From positions 1-9,054 of the IMG/VR virus record IMGVR_UViG_2778261179_000015: DNA of 9,054 nt; one strand, written 5' to 3'. The translations under genes and the position numbers were made by a program. Origin of the DNA: a virus (Duplodnaviria > Heunggongvirae > Uroviricota > Caudoviricetes). A model generated the notes under the pieces. That model worked only from the letters and a program-made list of their open reading frames with translations. It ran no database searches and was not told the DNA's origin. How positions within the stretch are numbered: position 1 is the stretch's first letter; every line of letters starts with the position of its first letter. Below are positions 1 to 9,054 of this stretch, in pieces.

Positions 1-1239
1 ATGAGCAGCGCAATTCATAGACTTAGCGACACTCTTTTACGAAAATTAAGCGGATCACCAACCACAAAAAACGCCTTTTTTAATGACGGTGGCAATCTTA
101 GCGTAAGACATTCCACCAGCGGCCTGTTAACCTGGTATTTCACTTACAGGGCCGGAACTGGCAGGCAGGTATCACCGGAACGCCTGAGACTGGGCAACTA
201 TCCCGATCTGAGCCTGAAAGCAGCCAGGGAAAAAGCGGCACAGTGTCGCGCCTGGCTGGCGGAGGGGAAAAATCCACGCCATGAGCTTAATCACACAGTG
301 CAGGAAGCGTTAGCCCCCGTGACGGTTAAGGACGCGCTCACTTACTGGCTTGAGTCGTATGCGAAGGAAAAGCGCACTGACCACGAATCACTGAAAAGCC
401 GTATCAATAAGCACATAATCAGCCAGATTGGTGCTATGCCGCTGGATAAATGCGAGCTACGCCACTGGCTGGCCTGTTTTGACCAGCTTGCTAAGCGTAA
501 TCCGGTATCAGCCGGCTTTTTGTTGCAGGTATGCAAACAGGCGCTTAAGTACTGCCGTAAACGTCGCTACGCCGTCAGTAACGTTCTTGATGATATGGTC
601 GTAGGTGATGTGGGAAAAAAAGCAGAAATAAGCGAGCGAGTGCTAACAAACAAGGAGCTTGGCGAGCTACTCCGCGCACTGGATGAAAAAATTTTCCCGC
701 CGTACTACAGCGCTTTAATTCGCCTTCTGATTGTCTTCGGATGCCGTACCACTGAGCTAAGACGCTCCGAGGTTCGGGAATGGGATTTTAAAGAAATGCT
801 CTGGACTGTGCCGAAAGAACACAGCAAAACGAAGGTAGCAATATTCAGGCCAATACCGGAAGCGATCTTGCCGTTCGTCATGAAGCTGGTGGAGCAGAAC
901 AGGCACACGGGCTTATTGCTTGGAGAACTGAAAGGGCAATCATCCGTAGCAGAGTACGGAAGAACGGCACACAGACGCATTAATCAAGCCCCCTGGTCGT
1001 TGCACGACATCCGGCACACATTTACAACCATGCTGAACGATTTAGGCGTGGATCCGCATATTGTCGAACAGCTTACTGCCCACCAGATGCCAGGAATGCA
1101 ACGCGTCTATAACCACTCCCGTTATCTCGATGCAAAGCGTGACGCTCTTAATCTATGGGTAGACCGTCTCGAGCTTCTCCAGAACAATGATGAAAAAATC
1201 GTTGTTATGACCCCGCGAATTTACCCCCAAAATTCTTGA
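1..1239 (+). CDS. int: Tyrosine integrase, P4-type (N-terminal arm-binding domain plus catalytic domain)
   Basis: 412-aa ORF. The N-terminal segment (LTWYFTYRAGTGRQVSPERLRLGNYPDLSLKAAREKAAQCRAWLAEGKNP) matches the pattern of P4-family integrase N-terminal domains. The C-terminus carries the tyrosine-recombinase motifs HDIRHTF and VYNHSRYLD with the catalytic Tyr. The ATG sits at window position 1, so upstream att/tRNA context is not visible. Confidence 0.9.
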   Translation: MSSAIHRLSDTLLRKLSGSPTTKNAFFNDGGNLSVRHSTSGLLTWYFTYRAGTGRQVSPERLRLGNYPDLSLKAAREKAAQCRAWLAEGKNPRHELNHTVQEALAPVTVKDALTYWLESYAKEKRTDHESLKSRINKHIISQIGAMPLDKCELRHWLACFDQLAKRNPVSAGFLLQVCKQALKYCRKRRYAVSNVLDDMVVGDVGKKAEISERVLTNKELGELLRALDEKIFPPYYSALIRLLIVFGCRTTELRRSEVREWDFKEMLWTVPKEHSKTKVAIFRPIPEAILPFVMKLVEQNRHTGLLLGELKGQSSVAEYGRTAHRRINQAPWSLHDIRHTFTTMLNDLGVDPHIVEQLTAHQMPGMQRVYNHSRYLDAKRDALNLWVDRLELLQNNDEKIVVMTPRIYPQNS

Positions 1240-1280
1240 CAAATTACGGCTGTTTTTTCTTTAAGAGATTACAGCCGTGA

Positions 1281-1320
1281 ATAGATCTTAGAATATCGGG
1301 GAATATCTGCAAATATCTTC
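1281..1320. repeat. Tandem 10-bp direct repeats (RAATATC core) in the int-alpA intergenic region; possible regulator binding sites
   Basis: gaatatcggg / gaatatctgc / aaatatcttc at 1291, 1301 and 1311, preceded by a degenerate copy atagatctta at 1281. The 10-bp phasing puts the sites on one helix face. They lie in a 420-bp AT-rich intergenic region. Confidence 0.35.
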
Positions 1321-1660
1321 TCTTTATATGTGTCAACTATCGAAAAAAATTGAAATGTCTTCTTCTGAACTTTTATTCTCTGTTTCTTGATTGTTCCAAC
1401 ACTTGATGGTTTATCTATTTGTTTTTAATGAGATAATTCAAGCGTAATGCCAAGTAACGACATTTTTTGTTGCATCGCTTAAAAACTCGTGACACGATTT
1501 TAAACACTAACGAGCTTCTACGAACCTTAGCGAACAAAGCCTTTAGCAAGGTTGTGTTTTTAATTTAAGAGGTGAAAAAAGAATCTAAGTAATATCCGAT
1601 CTCATATATCTACAGCTAAGAGAAAAGTTTATATACGTAATTTTTTATGTAGGTTTTTGT

Positions 1661-1870
1661 ATGCGTGAAATAAATGAAGATCGCGTAATCCGTGAGGATG
1701 AATGTCGTAAGTTAACTGGAGTGTGTCGCACTACACGCTATGAACTGGAGAAAAAAGGGAATTTCCCGTCACGCCGTAATCTGGGCGGTCGTTCTGTAGG
1801 TTGGCTGCTGTCCGAGGTTATGGAATGGGTTAAAAGCCGGGATCGCATTAATTCAGGCAAGGCAGCGTAA
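1661..1870 (+). CDS. alpA: AlpA-family transcriptional regulator / excisionase-like HTH protein
   Basis: 69-aa ORF. The sequence ECRKLTGVCRTTRYELEKKGNFPSRRNLGGRSVGWLLSEVMEWV fits the AlpA (CP4-57 regulatory protein) HTH pattern, and its position just downstream of a P4-type integrase is typical. A weak SD (agg) lies 7 nt upstream of the ATG. Confidence 0.85.
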   Translation: MREINEDRVIREDECRKLTGVCRTTRYELEKKGNFPSRRNLGGRSVGWLLSEVMEWVKSRDRINSGKAA

Positions 1871-1885
1871 AGGGGGGCATATGAC

Positions 1886-1920
1886 ACATAAAACAAAGGC
1901 GACCCGGATCAGAGGTCGCC
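1886..1920 (-). terminator. Putative intrinsic terminator for the minus-strand RHH gene
   Basis: Perfect 7-bp stem GGCGACC (1898-1904) / GGTCGCC (1914-1920) with a 9-nt loop. On the minus strand it is followed by TTTGTTTTATGTG. It sits in the gap between the convergent alpA and RHH genes. Confidence 0.45.
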
Positions 1921-2011
1921 AGTGGGAATACACTAAACATAAGCCCAGCCATCATAGCGATTTGCTGGCTGGTGGGCAATGTGATCAGTGTGCTGGCTTG
2001 CTGGTTGGCTG

Positions 2012-2185
2012 TCAGCCTTTGGGCTCGATACCGCGCTGTTGTAATTCTTTGCGGAGTATTCGTTTAATCCAAGTAGCTAATGAGGTGTCGCCGTCTGCCT
2101 TGGCTGCTTCCTCAAGTTGCGCTCTAAATTCTTCTGGTAGTCGCATTTGGTATGGTGGCGATCGTTTCTCTAATGGTGTTGACAT
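2012..2185 (-). CDS. Arc/MetJ-type ribbon-helix-helix DNA-binding protein (putative element repressor)
   Basis: Hand-translated minus-strand ORF of 57 aa: MSTPLEKRSPPYQMRLPEEFRAQLEEAAKADGDTSLATWIKRILRKELQQRGIEPKG. It is below the length cutoff of the ORF track. The segment PYQMRLPEEFRAQLEEAAKADG has the beta-strand/helix signature of Arc-family RHH proteins. SD AAGGG lies 8 nt upstream, an in-frame stop lies immediately upstream of the ATG, and the start codon abuts a palindromic operator. Confidence 0.75.
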   Translation of the reverse strand: MSTPLEKRSPPYQMRLPEEFRAQLEEAAKADGDTSLATWIKRILRKELQQRGIEPKG

Positions 2186-2225
2186 GGTAATTACCCTTAA
2201 TTACTATAGTTACATGGTAATTACC
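2182..2225. promoter_or_regulatory. Divergent promoter/operator region: two copies of the palindrome GGTAATTACC in a 14-bp direct repeat, flanking the palindrome ACTATAGT
   Basis: ACATGGTAATTACC occurs at 2182-2195 and 2212-2225, 30 bp centre to centre. Each copy contains the perfect 10-bp palindrome GGTAATTACC. ACTATAGT (2203-2210) is itself palindromic and includes a TATAGT -10-like hexamer. TTACCATT half-site repeats follow at 2221-2240. The region lies between the RHH gene start and the downstream + operon. Confidence 0.55.
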
Positions 2226-2321
2226 ATTGTACTTACCATTACACAAAAAACAACGCCCCGCACTGTAGGAGCAGTAACGGGGCGTCTAACCACCAACGAT
2301 AGCAGAAGTATCGAGGTCGCT

Positions 2322-2525
2322 ATGAGAAATCATACCACACACCCGCAAGGGCGGGATTCGCACAACCTGAATAAATACATCTGGCGTTTTATCGCCCTGA
2401 GCACGGCACAACCGCGCGTGATTACCATTGAGGCCAGCAGCGAACAGGAAGCACGCCAGCAATCCCCGGCTGGCTGCGTGATGGTATTCGCCGCCCGTAT
2501 TCGTCAGGGGGTATGCCATGCCTGA
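2322..2525 (+). CDS. Small protein, possibly Icd-like (host cell division inhibitor family); first gene of the early/replication operon
   Basis: 68-aa ORF taken from the in-frame ATG at 2322 inside the 1881-2525 ORF-track entry. SD GAGG lies 5 nt upstream. Its stop overlaps the next start (ATGCCTGA). The family assignment is a recollection of small proteins annotated Icd-like beside alpA in P4-like prophages and was not verified. Confidence 0.45.
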   Translation: MRNHTTHPQGRDSHNLNKYIWRFIALSTAQPRVITIEASSEQEARQQSPAGCVMVFAARIRQGVCHA

Positions 2526-2838
2526 TATGTCAAATTACCAGTACCTGATTAATCCGCATTTTAACTGTGAGCATGATATTGCTAAAAAGGTTTATTCCGC
2601 TGCGGATGGGGCTACTGACAATATATCAATGGCTGTTGCGTCAATTGGTAGCCTGATGTGGCATGCGTCAGAAAATAAGGACTATGACGAAAAGGCTATG
2701 CGCATTGATATGGGTAATATCGGTTTGTTACTGGCAATGCTTGGGCAGTTTGATATTTCGTTACGGTGCACCATTGAAAATGCCACAGATGCATTAAATG
2801 CCATAAAGAAAGCGAATACTGATTCAAATCGGGGATAA
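2518..2838 (+). CDS. Hypothetical protein (106 aa), function unknown
   Basis: Strong SD AGGGGG 6 nt upstream. Translationally coupled to the upstream gene by an 8-nt overlap. No recognisable motif. Confidence 0.6.
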   Translation: MPDMSNYQYLINPHFNCEHDIAKKVYSAADGATDNISMAVASIGSLMWHASENKDYDEKAMRIDMGNIGLLLAMLGQFDISLRCTIENATDALNAIKKANTDSNRG

Positions 2839-2844
2839 ATAATC

Positions 2845-3144
2845 ATGAGAACATATTTATCTGGCTTGACTGCCAGCGGTTATGCACACCCCAAAATTAT
2901 CCCCGGCGCTATTTATCTGGATAAGAACGGTAACAGAGTAACGGTAAAAGAACTGATGTTTGACCGTGTGTATTTTATTCGTGATGGCTATTCATTTCAT
3001 AGTTCGCTGAACGTGGAGATCTTTATTAGCAGATTCAGGCGGGAAATCCCGCTTTCCAGAAATAACCATGTGTCACGTGTGGATGTGGATAAAAAACTAC
3101 AGGAACTGAAAAACATGATTGCCGCGTGGAGAGAGCAGAAATGA
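2845..3144 (+). CDS. Hypothetical protein (99 aa), function unknown
   Basis: SD GGGGA upstream. Its stop overlaps the replication gene start in an ATGA arrangement. No recognisable motif. Confidence 0.6.
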   Translation: MRTYLSGLTASGYAHPKIIPGAIYLDKNGNRVTVKELMFDRVYFIRDGYSFHSSLNVEIFISRFRREIPLSRNNHVSRVDVDKKLQELKNMIAAWREQK

Positions 3145-5264
3145 AAAAAGCGCCAAATTTAAAACACCAGCCGCGTGACAAAATGACGGAAGTCATCATT
3201 TTTGCGGGTAGTGATGCGTGGGCACATGCGAAACAGTGGCAGGAACAGGACGGGCGACTGGCTGGCGATAACGTGCCACCTGTCTGGCTTGGAGAGCAAC
3301 AACTTGCCGAACTGGACAACCTGCAAATCGTACCGGACGGACGCTATCGCGTGCGTCTCTATCAGGCGGGGTTATTGCGTCCGGGGCTTGTTAATACCAT
3401 CGGGCAGAAACTGGCAGTGGCAGGTGTCAGGGATGCTGATTATTACCCTGAAGGAATGCACAGCCAGAAACGGGAGAACTGGCGCGAATATCTGGAACGT
3501 GAACGGGCAGAGCAGGCGGAAAAGAAAAAGGTAGTTGAACTGCCTGTAAAGAAAAAAGAGCCATGCTATCAGGATGATGAATTAAAGCCCCGCGTTGAAA
3601 GTCGCGTCGATGGTGTTTTCTGGGTAACGCCCAAAGTGGATAAGCAGTCAGGCGAAATTATCCGGCCTGAGACGTGGTTATGTTCTCCGCTTGAACTACT
3701 GGGAACGGGGACGATCGGTAAAGAACATTACCGCGTGATGCGCTGGAAAAAATCAGCAAACCATGAAGTCATCACAATGGCGATCCCGTGTGGTGGCATT
3801 GGCGACCGTGACGGCTGGCGGTTACTTAAAGATCACGGGCTGAACGTGACAACCAACGGCAAATACAGGGCAATCCTGGCGGACTGGATGCAGTTAAGCG
3901 GAAGCCATGAGGAATGGCAGTTAAGCACAACAACGGGCTGGCATTTTGGCGCGTACATCATGCCGGACGGTTCGATCATTGGTGATTCTGAAAAACCGAT
4001 CCTGTTTACCGGAAAAAGCGCCGCGATTAACGGTTATTCCGTGGCGGGTACGGCGGAGGGCTGGCGCGAGAGTGTGGCGCGGCTGGCTGGCGGTAATGCC
4101 TCAATGATGCTGGGTGTGGCAACGTCACTGGCAGCGCCTTTAATTGGCCTTGTGGGTGCTGACGGCTTCGGGGTGCATCTTTTCGAACAGTCATCGGCAG
4201 GTAAGACCACCACGCAGAACATCGCATCAAGTTTATGGGGAGAGCCGGACGCACAACGGCTTACCTGGTACGGAACGGCGTTAGGTATCGCCAACGAGGC
4301 AGAGGCGCACAACGACGGGCTGTTACCCCTGGATGAAATAGGCCAGGCCGGAAACGCGCGGGAGGTGTCCACGTCAGCCTATACGTTGTTTAACGGCTCC
4401 GGGAAATTACAGGGGGCGAAGGACGGCGGCAACCGGGAGATAAAACACTGGCGCACGGTGGCAATCAGCACCGGAGAAATGGACGTTGAGACATTCCTCA
4501 AAACGGAGGGGATAAAAGTCAAAGCGGGGCAGCTTGTCCGCCTGCTTAACGTTCCGATGGAAAAAGCCACGCACTTTCACGAATACAGCACCGGAAAGGC
4601 GCACGCAGACGCGTTAAAGGATGCCTGGACAGAAAATCACGGGGCAGCGGGTCGTGAGTGGGTTAAATGGCTGGCAGGCCACCAGCAGGAGGCAAAGGAT
4701 ACGGTAAGGGAATGCCGCGAACGGTGGCGCAACCTGATACCGGAGAGCTACGGCGAGCAGGTCCACCGCGTGGGTGAGCGTTTCGCCATACTGGAGGCCG
4801 CGCTTGTGCTTTCCGGTCATGTAACTGGCTGGGCCGCGCAGGAATGCCGGGACGCAATACAGCATAACTTTAATGCCTGGGTGAAGGAGTTCGGCACGGG
4901 TAACAGGGAATTTAAACAGATGGTTGAACAGGCTGAGGCGTTTTTGTCGTCGTTCGGGTTCAGTCGATACCTTCCTTACCCAAACAGTGATGAACGTGAT
5001 TTACCGATTAAAGACCTTGCCGGATACAGAAAGGGGAGTATCAGAAATGAAGATGATGAGTTCCGTTTTTACACGTTTCCTCATGTGTTTGAGGGGGAGA
5101 TCGCACAGGGATTTAACCCGTCCCACTTTGCCCGCGCGTTGAGTGCTGCCGGAATGCTGGAAGCGGGTAACGATCGCCGTTACAAGAAAAAGGCTCTCGG
5201 CAAAATTGGGGGGAAGCAGCATGTTTTTTACGTGCTGATGTTCCAGCCTGAGGCAGAAGATTAA
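3141..5264 (+). CDS. Replication initiator, putative primase/helicase-type P-loop NTPase (Pri-Rep-like)
   Basis: About 707 aa from the ATG at 3141, with SD GGAGAG 7 nt upstream. The ORF track begins at a GTG at 3126. Walker A motif EQSSAGKTTTQN and Walker B-like motif GLLPLDEIG are present. Size, position after alpA and before an iteron array match satellite replication proteins. Confidence 0.8.
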   Translation: MKKAPNLKHQPRDKMTEVIIFAGSDAWAHAKQWQEQDGRLAGDNVPPVWLGEQQLAELDNLQIVPDGRYRVRLYQAGLLRPGLVNTIGQKLAVAGVRDADYYPEGMHSQKRENWREYLERERAEQAEKKKVVELPVKKKEPCYQDDELKPRVESRVDGVFWVTPKVDKQSGEIIRPETWLCSPLELLGTGTIGKEHYRVMRWKKSANHEVITMAIPCGGIGDRDGWRLLKDHGLNVTTNGKYRAILADWMQLSGSHEEWQLSTTTGWHFGAYIMPDGSIIGDSEKPILFTGKSAAINGYSVAGTAEGWRESVARLAGGNASMMLGVATSLAAPLIGLVGADGFGVHLFEQSSAGKTTTQNIASSLWGEPDAQRLTWYGTALGIANEAEAHNDGLLPLDEIGQAGNAREVSTSAYTLFNGSGKLQGAKDGGNREIKHWRTVAISTGEMDVETFLKTEGIKVKAGQLVRLLNVPMEKATHFHEYSTGKAHADALKDAWTENHGAAGREWVKWLAGHQQEAKDTVRECRERWRNLIPESYGEQVHRVGERFAILEAALVLSGHVTGWAAQECRDAIQHNFNAWVKEFGTGNREFKQMVEQAEAFLSSFGFSRYLPYPNSDERDLPIKDLAGYRKGSIRNEDDEFRFYTFPHVFEGEIAQGFNPSHFARALSAAGMLEAGNDRRYKKKALGKIGGKQHVFYVLMFQPEAED

Positions 5265-5287
5265 CCCCCTGTGTGAGGTGAAAAGTT

Positions 5288-5602
5288 GCGGGTTATGCGG
5301 GTTACTCTGTGTATAAGTGCATTAACTGCATGAATAAAAAGGAAATCAATAACCCGCACGTAACCCGCAAAACGGCAGTTATAACCCGCAAAAGTGCGAT
5401 TATAACCCGCAGATGAATAACAGGAAGTGACAGCAAACAGCCACGCGTAACCCGCAGAAAAAACCCCGTTTGCGGGTTATTTTGAGCATTTTGCGGGTTA
5501 CGCCACGGCTAAACAGTAAACAGTTAATTTTGTAATGTATTGATATTAAGGAATAAAAAATACTTAGCAAGCGAAGATAACCCGCTAACCCGCATAACCC
5601 GC
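5288..5602. repeat. Replication origin: array of about 12 iterons (R)TAACCCGC / GCGGGTTA(Y) flanking AT-rich segments
   Basis: GCGGGTTA orientation at 5288-5296, 5297-5305, 5472-5480 and 5493-5501. TAACCCGC orientation at 5349-5357, 5361-5368, 5381-5389, 5402-5410, 5447-5455, 5577-5585, 5586-5593 and 5594-5602. AT-rich stretches lie at 5505-5576 and 5607-5626. The array starts immediately downstream of the replication gene stop. Confidence 0.75.
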
Positions 5603-5644
5603 ACTGTTTTGTATATATATATACGAAAAATTGAGATCTGAACT

Positions 5645-5887
5645 ATGAAGGCAAACCGCAAACAACCACACTACCGCGCTATTGACCTTACAGAGCACTG
5701 GCTGAGAGTGGCGATAAAAATCATCGACCGAAACACGGGGGAAGGATATGCAAAAGCACATCCCGAACTGATAAGCGCATTCATGACAACGGCAGCTGCA
5801 AACTTTGCCACGTTGACAGAACGGGAGATTGCCGAAGCGGAACAGGTGACAACCATCAACGTTAAAACCGGAGAGCAGACAGCATGA
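5645..5887 (+). CDS. Hypothetical protein (80 aa), function unknown; co-operonic with ssb
   Basis: ORF directly after the origin. Its stop overlaps the ssb start (ATGA at 5884-5887). No recognisable motif. Confidence 0.5.
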   Translation: MKANRKQPHYRAIDLTEHWLRVAIKIIDRNTGEGYAKAHPELISAFMTTAAANFATLTEREIAEAEQVTTINVKTGEQTA

Positions 5888-6306
5888 CAGCACAGATAGC
5901 GGCTTACGGACGGCTGGTGGCTGACCCGCAGTTAAAGACCACCAGCAAGGGTACACAAATGGCGATGGCTAGTATGGCGGTCCCCCTTCCGTGCAGCCAG
6001 GCAGATGACGGAACGGCGATGATGTGGTTATCCGTCCTGGCGTTTGGCAGACAGGCCGACGCACTGGCAAAACACCACAAAGGCGAACTGGTGAGCGTGG
6101 CGGGTAACATGCAGGTAAGCCAGTGGACAGGCCAGAACGGCGAAACGCGGCAGGGCTGGCAGGTTATCGCAGACAGCGTGATCAGTGCGCGAACAGCGCG
6201 ACCGGGCGGCAAAAAAGGCCAGCAGGGGCAGGCCACTGACGCACTGAACAGGGCAAAACAACAGTCGGGGAATGATGATCCGTACGGCGATAATATACCG
6301 TTTTAA
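5884..6306 (+). CDS. ssb: Single-stranded DNA-binding protein (SSB) homolog
   Basis: 140 aa. The OB-fold core aligns by eye with E. coli SSB (IAAYGRLVADPQLKTTSKGTQMAMASMAV and WLSVLAFGRQADALAKHHKGELVSVAGNMQVSQWTGQNGETRQGWQV). A Gly/Gln-rich linker is followed by the C-terminal tip DDPYGDNIPF, resembling the SSB acidic tail ending DDDIPF. Confidence 0.8.
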   Translation: MTAQIAAYGRLVADPQLKTTSKGTQMAMASMAVPLPCSQADDGTAMMWLSVLAFGRQADALAKHHKGELVSVAGNMQVSQWTGQNGETRQGWQVIADSVISARTARPGGKKGQQGQATDALNRAKQQSGNDDPYGDNIPF

Positions 6307-6323
6307 ATTCTGCAAACAAAAAG

Positions 6324-6352
6324 ATGCCGGAAAAAAATAGATTTTCCGGCAT
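6324..6352. terminator. Stem-loop at the end of the ssb operon (possible terminator; the T-tract is on the minus strand)
   Basis: ATGCCGGAAAA (6324-6334) pairs with TTTTCCGGCAT (6342-6352) around a 7-nt loop. The plus strand has an A-tract before and no U-tract after. The minus strand has CTTTTTGTTTG after the stem. It separates the replication module from the capsid module. Confidence 0.4.
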
Positions 6353-6517
6353 GCTACATAAATCCCGACCAAAGGAAGTAAATACATTAACACGAATTAT
6401 CAGCACTGAAGTTGTCACGGCATATTTTATACAACATTGCACTTGGTTGCATGTATTCGCATAGCAGACATCGGTAATAGAATATATTCACAATTATTTG
6501 TAATGAATGTAAAGAGG

Positions 6518-7564
6518 ATGAGTATGGTTGACTTATATTCGCCTACACAGCTTGTGCAGGTGGCTAATGCTGAAGATGTGCAAAAAAAATTAAATGCGTT
6601 GTTTACCAGTTTGTTTTTCACTCGCTCGGTAATGTTTGAATCGAGAGACATTATTCTTGATACGATCGACGATCCAAATATCCCGATCGCGGCGTTTTGC
6701 TCTCCTATGGTGGGCAGTAAAGTTTCACGAGATGAGGGATACGAATCAAAAACAATTCGTCCAGGTTATATGAAGCCGAAAAGCAGCATTGATCCAAATA
6801 AGTTAGCTGTGCGCCCTGCTGGTGTGTCACCTGAGCAATACAATGCTTTTGGGGCGCGTAATATTAAAGTTAAACAGGCGATTGTAAATCAGGCTAAAGC
6901 TATTCGTGCACGTATTGAATGGCTTGCTGTTCAGGCAATCACAACGGGGAAAAATATCATTGAGGGCGATGGTATTGAACGTTATGAGCTGGACTGGAAT
7001 ATAAAACCACAAAATATCATCACTCAGTCTGGCGGTACTGAGTGGTCAGGTAAGGATAAAGAAACTTTTGATCCAAATGATGATATTGAGAGCTACGCAG
7101 AATTTAGTGAGGGCGTCACTAATATCATCATTATGGGTGGTAATGTATGGAAGAAATACCGTTCATTCAGAGCGATAAAAGAGGCTTTGGATACCCGTCG
7201 TGGTTCTAATTCCGAACTGGAAACGGCCCTTAAAGACCTTGGTGATTCGGTGAGTTTTAAAGGGTATATGGGCGATGTTGCGATTGTTGTTTACAGCGGG
7301 CGTTATACCGACGAGGACGGAACAGAAAAACATTTCCTTGATCCTGATTTGATGGTGCTTGGCAATACGGCTCTTCAGGGGATTGTCGCCTATGGCGGTA
7401 TTCAGGATCCGGAGCTAATCCGAATGGGGCTGACTAAAGCCGAACTTGCACCGAAAAACTATATTGTGCCTGGTGATCCGGCTATTGAATATGTGCAGAC
7501 ACATTCAGCACCACAGCCAATACCGGCCCGCATCAATCGTTTTGTTACCGTTCGCATTGGCTAA
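6518..7564 (+). CDS. Major capsid protein, phage lambda gpE-like (HK97-fold family)
   Basis: About 348 aa from MSMVDLYSPTQLVQ, which parallels the lambda gpE N-terminus MSMYTT. SD AAGAGG is immediately upstream. Extended similarity to recalled lambda gpE includes ITQSGGTEWS, KEALDTRRGSNSELETALKDLG and GDVAIVVYSG. The ORF track starts earlier at 6437, probably upstream of the true start. Confidence 0.85.
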   Translation: MSMVDLYSPTQLVQVANAEDVQKKLNALFTSLFFTRSVMFESRDIILDTIDDPNIPIAAFCSPMVGSKVSRDEGYESKTIRPGYMKPKSSIDPNKLAVRPAGVSPEQYNAFGARNIKVKQAIVNQAKAIRARIEWLAVQAITTGKNIIEGDGIERYELDWNIKPQNIITQSGGTEWSGKDKETFDPNDDIESYAEFSEGVTNIIIMGGNVWKKYRSFRAIKEALDTRRGSNSELETALKDLGDSVSFKGYMGDVAIVVYSGRYTDEDGTEKHFLDPDLMVLGNTALQGIVAYGGIQDPELIRMGLTKAELAPKNYIVPGDPAIEYVQTHSAPQPIPARINRFVTVRIG

Positions 7565-7573
7565 GGGGGAGCA

Positions 7574-7915
7574 ATGGCTACTCATTACACTGAACTCATG
7601 GCTGGCACTGAAGCACTGGTGACTACGCTGGGGATATTTTCAGCTAATAAAGGGGTAATTCCTGCATTTACGCCACTGATGCAGGAAGATGCAACAGGTG
7701 CACTGGTGGTATGGGATGGTTCGAGCGTAGGTAAAGCGGTTTATGTTTCCGCTGTACAAATCGACACAGCGAAAAAAACACAGGCACAGGTTTATAAGAC
7801 AGGTGTTTTAAATGTTGATGCTCTGAACTGGCCTGAGTCTGTAAAAGAACTGTCGGCAAAGGTTGCCGCGTTTGTTGGCTCAGGTATTTCTGTTCAGCCG
7901 CTGGCTCGTGTGTAA
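7574..7915 (+). CDS. Head decoration protein, phage lambda gpD-like
   Basis: 113 aa. The segment TPLMQEDATGALVVWDGSSVGKAVYVSAVQIDTAKKTQAQVYKTGVLNVDALNWPE parallels recalled lambda gpD (TPLMLDTSSRKLVAWDG...FYKSG...LWPE). SD AGGGGGA upstream; lies 10 nt after the capsid gene stop. Confidence 0.8.
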   Translation: MATHYTELMAGTEALVTTLGIFSANKGVIPAFTPLMQEDATGALVVWDGSSVGKAVYVSAVQIDTAKKTQAQVYKTGVLNVDALNWPESVKELSAKVAAFVGSGISVQPLARV

Positions 7916-7926
7916 AGGGGGATACA

Positions 7927-8310
7927 ATGCAGAATCATTACAATGACCTTAAGCCAATTGCCGAAATGATGTATCCGGATCCAGCAGTAGAGGAATTAAA
8001 GGCTATTGCTGACAAAATGCGTTTAAGTGAACGCCTTGTTGATATGAATCAGGTGATGGAACTTACTACCCTTAGCCGTCGCACATTGCTAAACCTTGAG
8101 GCTCGCGGAGAGTTCCCCGAACGCGTACAGGTTACGGAAGGGCGTAAGGCCTGGTATTTAAGTGAAGTGATCGACTGGATAAACAATATTCCTCGATCTT
8201 CTGAATATTGCCGCGTACCTGTCCCAAAAAAGCCAGATGCGGCGCTATGCCTCAAGATTGAGCGTGTACGTCGCAATGCACGGGATGGTCGCTATAAGTT
8301 GATTGGTTGA
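7927..8310 (+). CDS. AlpA-type HTH domain protein (127 aa) with N- and C-terminal extensions; putative regulator or DNA-specificity factor
   Basis: The central segment MNQVMELTTLSRRTLLNLEARGEFPERVQVTEGRKAWYLSEVIDWINN matches the AlpA/excisionase-type HTH pattern and resembles the alpA product at 1661-1870. SD GGGGG 5 nt upstream. The gene ends about 25 bp before the cos core. Confidence 0.7.
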   Translation: MQNHYNDLKPIAEMMYPDPAVEELKAIADKMRLSERLVDMNQVMELTTLSRRTLLNLEARGEFPERVQVTEGRKAWYLSEVIDWINNIPRSSEYCRVPVPKKPDAALCLKIERVRRNARDGRYKLIG

Positions 8311-8335
8311 TGAAATTAGGGCCCGTTCTGGCTGG

Positions 8336-8400
8336 CGGGTCCTTTCCGGCGATCCGGTAGGCTACGGGGCGGCGACCTCGCGGGTTTTCGCTATTTATGA
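8336..8400. other. Lambda-type cohesive end site (cosQ-cosN), with the 12-nt cohesive-end sequence GGGCGGCGACCT at 8367-8378
   Basis: Window 8336-8366 (CGGGTCCTTTCCGGCGATCCGGTAGGCTACG) matches the recalled right end of the lambda genome (CGGGTCCTTTCCGGTGATCCGACAGGTTACG) with 4 mismatches. Window 8367-8400 (GGGCGGCGACCTCGCGGGTTTTCGCTATTTATGA) matches the first 34 nt of the lambda genome exactly. Similarity is lost downstream of 8400, in the presumptive cosB (8401-8500). Confidence 0.85.
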
Positions 8401-8511
8401 GCCTTTTTCGGGTGCTGGTGGTGGTTTTGTTGTTCGCTCTATCTCTATGAATAAAAAGGAAAAGATAAAGCCAATACACCAACCTGAAACATTACTTAAG
8501 TGGGGATATTG

Positions 8512-9054
8512 ATGAAATCGCACCTGATGAACAAAAAAAACATGGCGCAAAGCTGCCGTGTAAGTGCGACAGCGTTCGACAAGTGGGGAGTGACTCCCGT
8601 TGAACGTAAAGGCCGCGAGGCGTTTTATGATGTTGCCAGCGTAATAGACAATCGGGTTAGCAATGCAATTAACCAGATTACAGACGACAAAGGCGAGATT
8701 GATAATGATGAGCTTTTGCGAGTCAGGATCAGATTGCTGACAGCGCAGGCGGAGGCGCAGGAGCTTAAAAACGAGCGCGAACGCGGCGATGTGATTAGTA
8801 CGGAATTTTGTATATATGCGCTTTCAAAACTGGCGAGTCAGATTTCTTCAATCATGGGCAGCCTGCCGCTTACTATGCAAAGGAGCTTCCCACAGATGAC
8901 CCCCGCCATGCTGGATGGCCTGAAAAAAGAAGTTGTCAGAGCCTGTAACGCATGCACAAAACTTGATGAAAACATCCCGCGAATGCTGTCCGATTATCTG
9001 ATGGAAACTACCGGAAATGTGCCTGATAAGTTTCAGCCGGATAAAGACAAGTAA
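8512..9054 (+). CDS. terS: Terminase small subunit, phage lambda Nu1-like
   Basis: About 180 aa from the ATG at 8512, with SD GGGGA upstream. Alternative starts exist at 8527 and 8542, and the ORF track begins at a GTG at 8500. The C-terminal two thirds (RLLTAQAEAQELKNERERGDVISTEFCIYALSKLASQISSIMGSLPLTMQRSFP...LDENIPRMLSDYLMETTG) parallels recalled lambda Nu1 (RLTRAQADAQELKNARDSAEVVETAFCTFVLSRIAGEIASILDGLPLSVQRRFP...LDELIPGLLSEYIEQSG). The N-terminal DNA-binding region is more diverged. The gene lies immediately downstream of cos, as in lambda. Confidence 0.85.
   Translation: MKSHLMNKKNMAQSCRVSATAFDKWGVTPVERKGREAFYDVASVIDNRVSNAINQITDDKGEIDNDELLRVRIRLLTAQAEAQELKNERERGDVISTEFCIYALSKLASQISSIMGSLPLTMQRSFPQMTPAMLDGLKKEVVRACNACTKLDENIPRMLSDYLMETTGNVPDKFQPDKDK

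Follow-up and report, generated by a model that had tools for sequence, protein, structure and literature searches.

A Nu1-family small terminase at the cos site of an enterobacterial phage satellite and its probable use of a helper's large terminase

How does a phage satellite that encodes a small terminase subunit (TerS) but no large one (TerL) have its own DNA packaged? This question is raised by terS, the last gene (8512..9054, + strand) of a 9,054-nt stretch of viral DNA (IMG/VR record IMGVR_UViG_2778261179_000015, positions 1 to 9,054; hereafter the window), which runs from the start of the integrase gene of a phage-inducible chromosomal island (PICI) to the terS stop codon. The original prediction for this locus described a Nu1-like small terminase with a diverged N-terminal half and a conserved C-terminal half, which would pair with the TerL of a helper phage and redirect it to satellite DNA. 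Comparison of the locus with related satellites and phages makes it probable that the satellite TerS indeed directs helper TerL to satellite DNA, and redirection of helper packaging by a small terminase is a standard published PICI role (PMC10085698).

The terS open reading frame (ORF) is intact, encodes 180 aa and starts with an ATG preceded at 5-9 nt by a GGGGA Shine-Dalgarno sequence (8502-8506); the N-terminus of its product (MKSHLMNKKNMA...) is common to homologs. Its assignment as a Nu1-like protein was borne out by a Pfam match to Phage_Nu1 (PF07471; E=1.1e-21, 77.6 bits against a cut-off of 30) and by BLASTP against lambda Nu1 (J02459), which revealed 35% identity over nearly the full length (E=2e-33), and RefSeq labels the same gene "terminase small subunit". 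The Pfam match is confined to residues 64-147 (profile positions 78-161 of 164), leaving the N-terminal ~60 aa outside the profile, and a phmmer search of PDB sequences with the entire protein returned nothing relevant. An AlphaFold2 model gave residues 5-56 a beta-alpha-alpha-beta-beta-alpha fold and, beyond them, showed four long helices. The cos-plus-terS module occurs in 793 of the 5,426 complete Escherichia coli genomes, O157:H7 among them, and TerS is a member of both the Nu1 family and the PICI core gene set, a class that is already catalogued, annotated and common.

Orphan Nu1 homologs reportedly persist in defective E. coli prophages, and one nohD annotation was encountered, so that the gene could be the leftover cos-nu1 fragment of a decayed prophage, like nohA or nohD. 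However, the ORF is intact (at least 80% coverage) in 763 of the 5,426 complete genomes, its location is constant within a conserved satellite architecture, across several attachment (att) sites and several genera, and no terL fragment ever follows it. Relative to the O157 allele, the ratio of nonsynonymous to synonymous substitution rates (dN/dS) was 0.18 overall, 0.23 in the DNA-binding domain (DBD) and 0.155 over residues 96-166, which indicates that both halves of the protein are under purifying selection. Conservation and selection therefore effectively refute a prophage remnant, which we regard as excluded and to which we leave only a marginal chance. In the same comparison, dS differed four-fold between the halves (0.22 vs 0.87), which points to separate histories.

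As the original prediction stated, no terL-like gene lies upstream of terS; indeed, no similarity to TerL, portal or prohead protease was evident in any frame of the window. Beyond position 9054, terL is absent downstream of terS in 21/21 satellite loci having enough sequence, and neither terL nor a portal gene follows it in complete genomes. In that of E. coli E6474, which carries the same island (98% identical) between yljB/cspD and clpS, terS is followed by a 94-aa ORF only and then by host genes (clpS). Our survey of TerS, terL and cosB covered 80 IMG/VR loci plus islands collected from genomes. A TerS at least 49% identical to that of the window was without terL in all 21 loci that could be judged, more distant ones nearly all came with it, and the phage homologs (≤51% identity) are followed by a gpA-type terL. 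The lack of a following terL, unlike the phage operon layout, in which terL comes next and overlaps, marks terS as satellite-borne. The island carries, in order, an integrase, an AlpA regulator, a primase, a capsid gene and the small terminase, and is free of TerL, portal, tail and lysis genes, as in the PICI definition of SatelliteFinder (PMC10085698). By this gene content the window is a PICI satellite with terS as its last core gene. Induction, excision and transfer by a helper phage have been shown for the related EcCICFT073 (PMC6092414), and relatives embedded in lambdoid prophages suggest the type of helper. Autonomous packaging, as in capsid-forming PICIs (cf-PICIs) with their own TerL, portal and protease, might be invoked for an island that encodes its own capsid and decoration proteins; the search of the window and flanks for the cf-PICI set (TerL, HNH, portal, protease, connectors) found none of them, which refutes this explanation here and leaves it with virtually no probability.

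What the island does possess is a cos site directly 5' of terS. The 12-base cohesive-end sequence of cosN, GGGCGGCGACCT (8367..8378, +), lies 145 bp upstream of the gene, with the ATG at bp 146, and is identical to lambda bp 1-12 at 12/12 positions. On the cosQ side, the left flank of cosN (8336..8366, +), which the helper large terminase would use, matches lambda 48472-48502 at 27/31 positions, and bp 13-44 past the nick (8379..8410, +), a TerL-proximal spacer with a conserved CGCTATTTATGA box, do so at 28/32. Aligned as one block, window 8336-8411 and the circularised lambda cos junction are identical at 68/76 positions. Past this point identity in register falls to 14/28 at bp 45-72 and 29/73 at bp 73-145, and the cosB region of the window holds no equivalents of the lambda R3/I1/R2/R1 elements; the earlier statement that cosB is diverged was therefore correct. 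The rest of cosB and the leader (8437..8511, +), which includes the ribosome-binding site, matches the O157 island at 60/75 positions. These alignments describe a hybrid cos site with cosQ flank, cosN and bp 13-44 of lambda type and satellite-specific DNA from ~bp 45, and EcCICFT073 has the same kind of hybrid (PMC6092414, PMC6739421). A repeat search revealed no direct or inverted repeats in 8360-8520, and an inverted R2-like element proposed by eye at ~bp 112-119 (CACCAACC) was dropped for lack of support from it.

Several further observations concern cos. Among satellites that share TerS and cosB, the cohesive-end interiors vary (GGGCGGCGACCT, GGGCGGCAGACG, GGGCGGAAGGCG, GGGCGTCAGGCG, GGGCGTCGACCT, GGGCGGAGACCT), with positions 1-5 and 11 and the flanks kept (L131, L135, L146, L150, L177 and L134; L031 and L044-L048). 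Islands at the phoQ site (O157:H7, CFT073 and the P0120 island) carry a second perfect cosQ-cosN, inverted, 191-215 bp past terS or rppA (L008:9846, L013:20309 and L020:7776, all on the minus strand), with a cosB of different type pointing into the gene. In L021 the entire cos-terS cassette (7001-7585) runs opposite to the rest of the island, which is what recombination between inverted cos copies would produce; in the window's lineage, represented by E6474, there is no second copy within 700 bp. In the island of strain C5 (L010:4565-5728) the capsid and decoration genes are absent, and a cosN with GGGCGGCAGACG and a complete 21-type cosB (R-like CATGTCGG repeats) precede a mosaic TerS, downstream of which lies S-type pyocin/immunity cargo.

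The divergence of cosB from lambda has a counterpart in the protein. Residues 5-56 (8524..8679, +) form a predicted winged helix-turn-helix (HTH) DBD of the N15/D3 class. Searching phage records with residues 1-67 retrieved N15 gp1 (51%) and Pseudomonas D3-like TerS proteins (~60% over 47 aa); in a multiple alignment, the identity of residues 1-55 was 56% with N15, 53% with MD8 and 35% with lambda; and hhalign paired residues 6-48 with residues 3-50 of the lambda-type DBD (E=2.5e-5, 75% probability). The N-terminal half is thus, on these alignments, a known alternative DBD class within the Nu1 winged-HTH fold. Its predicted divergence holds with respect to lambda (35-38% identity for the N-half) but does not make it an orphan, as the figures for N15 gp1 and, at 53%, a Pseudomonas D3-like phage TerS attest.

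Across ~100 satellite and phage loci, the class of the DBD co-varies with that of cosB in five DBD classes. The N15-type DBD goes with GGTGGTGGT(G/T)TTGTTGTT at the R3 position in satellites and with GGTTGGTTGTTGTT in phages in which a gpA-type terL follows (24 loci, with cos anchored in about half), whereas the classes SIRTIQNWQ (lambda), DPRTIERWQ (21-type), DIRTIDRWQ and DVRTI(S/T)xWQ go with CGTTTCCGTTCTTCTT, CATGTCGGTACT, CATGTCAGTTCTT and AGATCCGTTCTTCTT, respectively; in distant phages, the register of cos depends on a sequence anchor, and at some loci this anchor failed or may be out of place. In the window, the putative TerS binding site equivalent to R3 (GCTGGTGGTGGTTTTGTTGTTCG; bp 48-70; 8414..8436, +) lines up in register with R3-N15 (bp 48-60) and R3-lambda (bp 50-65) (PMC9026076), and its motif occurs once against 0.01 occurrences expected by chance. 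The R3-like motif is kept, across differing cosN and flank sequences, in all satellites with an N15-type DBD (E. coli, Kosakonia, Scandinavium and metagenomes), and this DBD is accompanied by a G/T-rich R3 element also in phages where cos could be anchored. Collectively, these regularities constitute strong, albeit indirect, evidence that the DBD reads the R3-position element.

The DBD and its site also travel together. The conserved coil motif AQAEAQELKN (residues 78-87; 8743..8772, +) is, judging from mosaic proteins and from the boundary of DNA homology, the recombination joint between DBD and C-half. E. coli homologs include 194-aa mosaics, all in PICIs without terL, and the type switches at AQA(D/E)AQELKN in P0101, P0103, P0119 and P0120. 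P0101 joins a DBD half near-identical to that of the CFT073 "phage 4" (21-type) TerS to a C-half closely matching the window's, and P0103 and P0120 have other lambda-like DBDs on a satellite-type C-half. At the DNA level, the islands of E6474 and P0103 show 97% identity beginning at terS codon ~77, and 5' of it they are unrelated to cosN. Similarly, the O157:H7 island and EcCICFT073 share an att site adjacent to phoQ; their sequences agree at 94% as far as bp ~42 past the nick, are unrelated over cosB and the gene, and become homologous again ~150 bp beyond the gene, with terS in this gap in O157 and a 144-aa RppA in CFT073. Lying in the same gap of otherwise 94%-identical islands, terS and rppA are therefore alternative cassettes. 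RppA shows similarity to lambda-type DBDs (30%, E=3e-6) and none detectable to the window's TerS. These comparisons delimit two recombination cassettes that can be exchanged, "cosB + DBD" and "cosB + whole gene" (terS or rppA), with boundaries at bp ~13-44 of cos (left edge ~bp 42) and at the AQA(D/E)AQELKN codons (codon ~77). On a separate note, the Rpp-type cosB core ACCACCACC in EcCICFT073 (L013, bp 55-63 past cosN at 19559) is the reverse complement of GGTGGTGGT (window 8417-8425) at almost the same distance from cosN; this could be a chance match of low-complexity sequence or an inverted related site.

That terS takes the very place of rppA, with the att site shared, speaks for an Rpp-like adaptor, that is, a satellite TerS that would not bind TerL itself and would form mixed oligomers with helper TerS via the conserved central coil, with TerL brought by the C-terminus of the helper TerS and the satellite DBD reading satellite cosB. 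Such a mode would promote the satellite while blocking the helper. Along the same line, conservation between satellite and helper TerS is highest in the central coil (55% in the Kosakonia pair), the C-half is as distant from lambda as a 21-type TerS, and EcCICFT073 needs the helper TerS (PMC6739421). Nevertheless, the last 30-40 residues are missing from Rpp proteins (PMC9026076), whereas the window's TerS retains a full Nu1-type C-half at the low dN/dS given above; RppA, as mentioned, does not resemble this TerS; and Rpp binds the DBD of TerS rather than the coil (PMC6739421). We consider an adaptor of this kind unlikely, although it is the main rival of direct TerL recruitment.

The C-half itself comprises residues 88-166 (8773..9009, +), which by homology, identities and dN/dS would be a satellite-lineage version of the Nu1 self-association and TerL-binding region, and a satellite-specific C-terminal tail (residues 167-180; 9010..9051, +; ETTGNVPDKFQPDKDK region) delimited by alignments. 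In lambda TerS, residues 100-181 are the TerL-interacting part, according to PMC6739421. The C-half is predicted to be all-helical, shows the conserved positions of the family and is kept in full in all terS alleles. From AQELKN on, it is 43% identical to lambda, 43% to N15, 39% to 21-type TerS, 53% to the lambdoid phage PhiR5_1 and 73% to the O157 satellite, and at >51% identity no record was found among 50,697 phage genomes. The private tail of 12-14 aa (...METTGNVPDKFQPDKDK) is absent from phage TerS and present in most E. coli satellite alleles. Comparison of the two halves with Nu1 thus yielded similarity in both, with the C-half (41-43%) barely above the N-half (35-38%). A different satellite lineage (L062-L064, L109 and L120) has an N15-type DBD and a GGTGGTGGTGTTGTTGTT site on a lambda-like C-half, which is 74% identical to lambda and 72% to its own helper, an architecture equal to that of N15 gp1.

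We also compared satellites with their presumptive helpers. The capsid-decoration-AlpA-TerS module was found in PICIs inside the major capsid gene of lambdoid prophages, a configuration already described (PMC10111431), and 11 distinct pairs with both cos-terS sets were assembled from loci fetched through the integrase, nine of them with an N15-type satellite DBD; embedding in a prophage is no proof that this prophage is the helper. The pair helpers encode lambda-type Nu1 and gpA. Satellite and helper agree at 26-30/31 positions of the cosQ flank in N15-type pairs and at 19-31/32 positions of bp 13-44, whereas in the nine N15-type pairs bp 45-72 are unrelated (8-15/28) and the DBD parts 32-39% identical. 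The satellite TerS of L146 and L154 has the C-terminal allele of L037 and L061 (TerS ~90% identical to the window's), while the Nu1 of the enclosing prophages has a C-terminus identical to lambda's. The idea taken from the Kosakonia pair that satellite cosN tracks helper cosN was overturned, as the two are identical in 3/11 pairs. H137, a weak capsid match suspected to be an Rpp island, was rejected as an ordinary lambdoid prophage. The helper-embedded junction derived from L024 had no match in complete E. coli genomes. Helper-embedded PICIs (L024, L026, L027, L028, L109, L113, L118 and L119) split the helper gene E at residue ~80-82 and bring their own gpE-like gene (~41-43% identical); in L028 (Cedecea) the module is present without any terS of at least 100 aa.

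One pair, L134, departs from this pattern, in that the satellite shares the helper's DBD (97%) and cosB (27/28) and not its C-part (38%). Together with P0101, P0103 and P0120, it belongs to the mosaics that keep the satellite C-half and adopt a helper DBD and cosB, and such alleles, like the restriction to satellites of the C-half lineage with the extra tail, would fit a protein acting mainly in interference, whose C-half would be a TerL trap or poison subunit against helper packaging, with satellite specificity coming from elsewhere. On the other hand, cosB of the window's lineage lacks helper-type R sites, and helper TerS alone should therefore recognise it poorly, and the tight co-conservation of the DBD and its site implies productive DNA recognition. 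We deem a mainly interfering role rather improbable for the window's TerS.

Redirection of helper TerL is supported instead by three features, namely a hybrid cos that keeps the TerL-proximal parts, the strict co-variation of DBD and cosB, and, in the helper pairs, a cosQ flank and bp 13-44 that agree with the helper where cosB and DBD do not. Built upon the observed anatomy, terL absence, co-variation, cassette structure and selection, the proposed mechanism, by which the island would parasitise lambda-like cos phages, would start with binding of the N15-class winged HTH (residues ~5-56) to GGTGGTGGTTTTGTTGTT at the R3 position (8417-8434). The helical C-half would oligomerise and recruit the helper's gpA-type TerL, which would nick satellite cosN, and satellite concatemers would then be packaged into helper-derived heads, possibly modified by the island's own gpE-like and gpD-like proteins. 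Competition for TerL would also lower helper yield.

Not all observations favour this model, and those that weigh against it mostly concern the C-half. The claim that this region aligns closely with lambda did not hold, since the 41-43% identity equals that between the C-halves of lambda and 21-type TerS (43%), and work with lambda/21 chimeras reportedly places these two phages in TerL-incompatible classes. Nor can a conserved C-half serve as an argument, given that it is 40-45% identical to the helper's TerS in 8/9 natural N15-type pairs (72% in the remaining one, L120) and belongs to a satellite-specific lineage. No co-variation was found between the TerS C-terminus and cosN type, taken as a proxy for helper TerL, and in 8/11 pairs the cosN interior of the satellite is not that of the prophage around it. 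The AlphaFold2 model is of moderate confidence (mean pLDDT 71), and Foldseek of the whole model against PDB produced no significant match, only weak hits to MerR-family winged-HTH proteins. Moreover, mosaics such as P0101 and L134 have the helper's own DBD and cosB on a satellite C-half, and changed DNA specificity therefore cannot account for preferential packaging in these alleles, nor fully explain the family. Finally, DNA binding, TerL binding and interference are steps that we infer from sequence. The redirection model of the original prediction thus stands, with robust Nu1 similarity and neither terL nor portal downstream, though its reasoning from the C-half was weak.

The mosaics also invite a broader, tentative view, less likely to be right than wrong, in which the packaging locus of enterobacterial cos-PICIs would be a recombination-shuffled identity system of three modules: cosN interior, cosB plus DBD, and TerS C-half or Rpp. 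The satellite C-half, which equals the 21-type in its distance from lambda, has a private tail and is kept in alleles with helper DBD and cosB, would be the real hijacking determinant; it might seize or re-programme the TerL of the helper and keep satellite TerS apart from that of the helper, and Rpp would have arisen at this locus as a derived and truncated solution.

With regard to known systems, the window's TerS shares with lambda gpNu1 its family, length (180 vs 181 aa), order of regions (winged HTH, coil, self-association, C-terminal region) and gene location just 3' of cosN-cosB, with cosN, the cosQ flank and bp 13-34 essentially identical. It differs in the class of the DBD, which has deletions in loop and wing, in the position of the start codon (bp 146 vs 191 in lambda), in the absence of an R3/I1/R2/R1 array and of a gene A thereafter, and in the extra tail of 12-14 aa. 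The closest phage protein is N15 gp1 (46% overall, 56% in the DBD), which likewise goes with a G/T-rich R3-position element containing GTTGTTGTT and a short cosB without an obvious integration host factor (IHF) site or R2/R1. However, the N15 C-half is of lambda type (78% to lambda, against 43% for the window's), and N15 has its own TerL, a cosN of GGGCGGCGTCCG and the R3 motif GGTTGTTGTTT where the window has GGTGGTGGTTTTGTTGTT. The Rpp proteins (RppA/B/C) of EcCICFT073-type PICIs belong to the same kind of island, occupy the same place after a hybrid cos and have a winged-HTH DBD, but are 135-153 aa long, lack a Nu1 C-half, act by binding helper TerS and go with the cosB core ACCACCACC; the window's TerS has neither their size nor their truncated C-terminus, nor similarity to RppA/B/C.

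Beyond the enterobacterial systems, the TerS of SaPIs (pathogenicity islands of Staphylococcus aureus), TerS_S, is likewise a satellite small terminase of an island without TerL that pairs with helper TerL and redirects packaging. It differs in that SaPI packaging is headful (pac), the TerS family is unrelated and a separate protein, Ppi, blocks helper TerS; in the window's island, only the cosB part of cos is private, and no Ppi-like gene was identified. P4 and SaPIbov5 also depend on helper terminase cutting a helper-type cosN, yet they have no TerS of their own and rely on the helper's, whereas the window's island has its own TerS and cosB. By analogy, the window's TerS would work like a SaPI TerS moved to a cos system, at the place of Rpp, and appears to be neither an Rpp nor part of a cf-PICI. 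Beyond a generic statement in SatelliteFinder, no characterised cos-type Nu1 TerS of a PICI turned up in the literature searched, which is no proof of absence, and that literature did not contain the N15-class pairing of DBD and site, the allelism of terS and rppA, nested cassettes or data on natural pairs.

The remainder of the island conforms to its satellite nature. On the + strand, it encodes a PICI tyrosine integrase (1..1239; PF00589, PF13356), an AlpA-family regulator (1661..1870; PF05930, E=2.9e-16), a DUF4222 protein found by Pfam search (2845-3144) just before a DUF927 primase/helicase-type replication protein (3126..5264; PF06048, E=2.5e-48), satellite copies of a lambda gpE-type major capsid protein (6524..7564; PF03864, E=3.8e-41; RefSeq start) and a gpD-type head decoration protein (7574..7915; PF02924, E=4.1e-15), and, directly 5' of cos, a second AlpA-family protein of 127 aa (7927..8310; PF05930; PDB 8c3t AlpA, E=8e-11). 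A single-stranded DNA-binding protein (SSB) is encoded at 5884-6306, between the replication and capsid genes. The gpE-type protein is 42% identical to a lambdoid E protein, and the capsid and decoration genes (6524-7915) are present without portal, protease or scaffold; in EcCICFT073, deletion of the homologs c1499 and c1500 left interference with lambda unrelieved (PMC6092414). The 127-aa protein was considered as an Rpp and rejected, as it belongs to the AlpA family (PDB 8c3t) and has no RppC match; its HTH spans residues 36-85, and its size and position are kept in the distant islands L023, L024 and L062, with an unrelated 137-aa ORF in its place in O157 and CFT073. A TTG-initiated ORF of 69 aa across cos (8303-8512) is probably spurious because it has no Pfam match and is absent from the RefSeq annotation. 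Between integrase and alpA, 1250-1650 is AT-rich (33-39% GC) and non-coding, and presumably the regulatory region of the island. Islands with a common packaging module have different replication modules, DUF927 (3126-5264) in the window, a RepA/AAA_25 helicase in O157 (L008:3727-5127) and a D5_N primase in CFT073 (L013:14242-15996), and modular exchange therefore extends to their left side too.

Satellite small terminases are the accepted means by which many PICIs take over the packaging motor of the helper, and our data do not overturn this understanding. Among enterobacterial cos-PICIs, just one has been studied in depth, and it relies on Rpp; the terS type, present in ~15% of complete E. 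coli genomes, is a second and directly testable solution at the same locus. It raises the questions of whether a TerS-bearing cos satellite needs helper TerS and of how a C-half of ~43% identity engages gpA. The comparative data further bear on matters raised in the Rpp work, namely the origin of Rpp, its several variants and the two cos sites of some islands (PMC6739421), and the compact pair of DBD and site could serve in building orthogonal cos-packaging systems.

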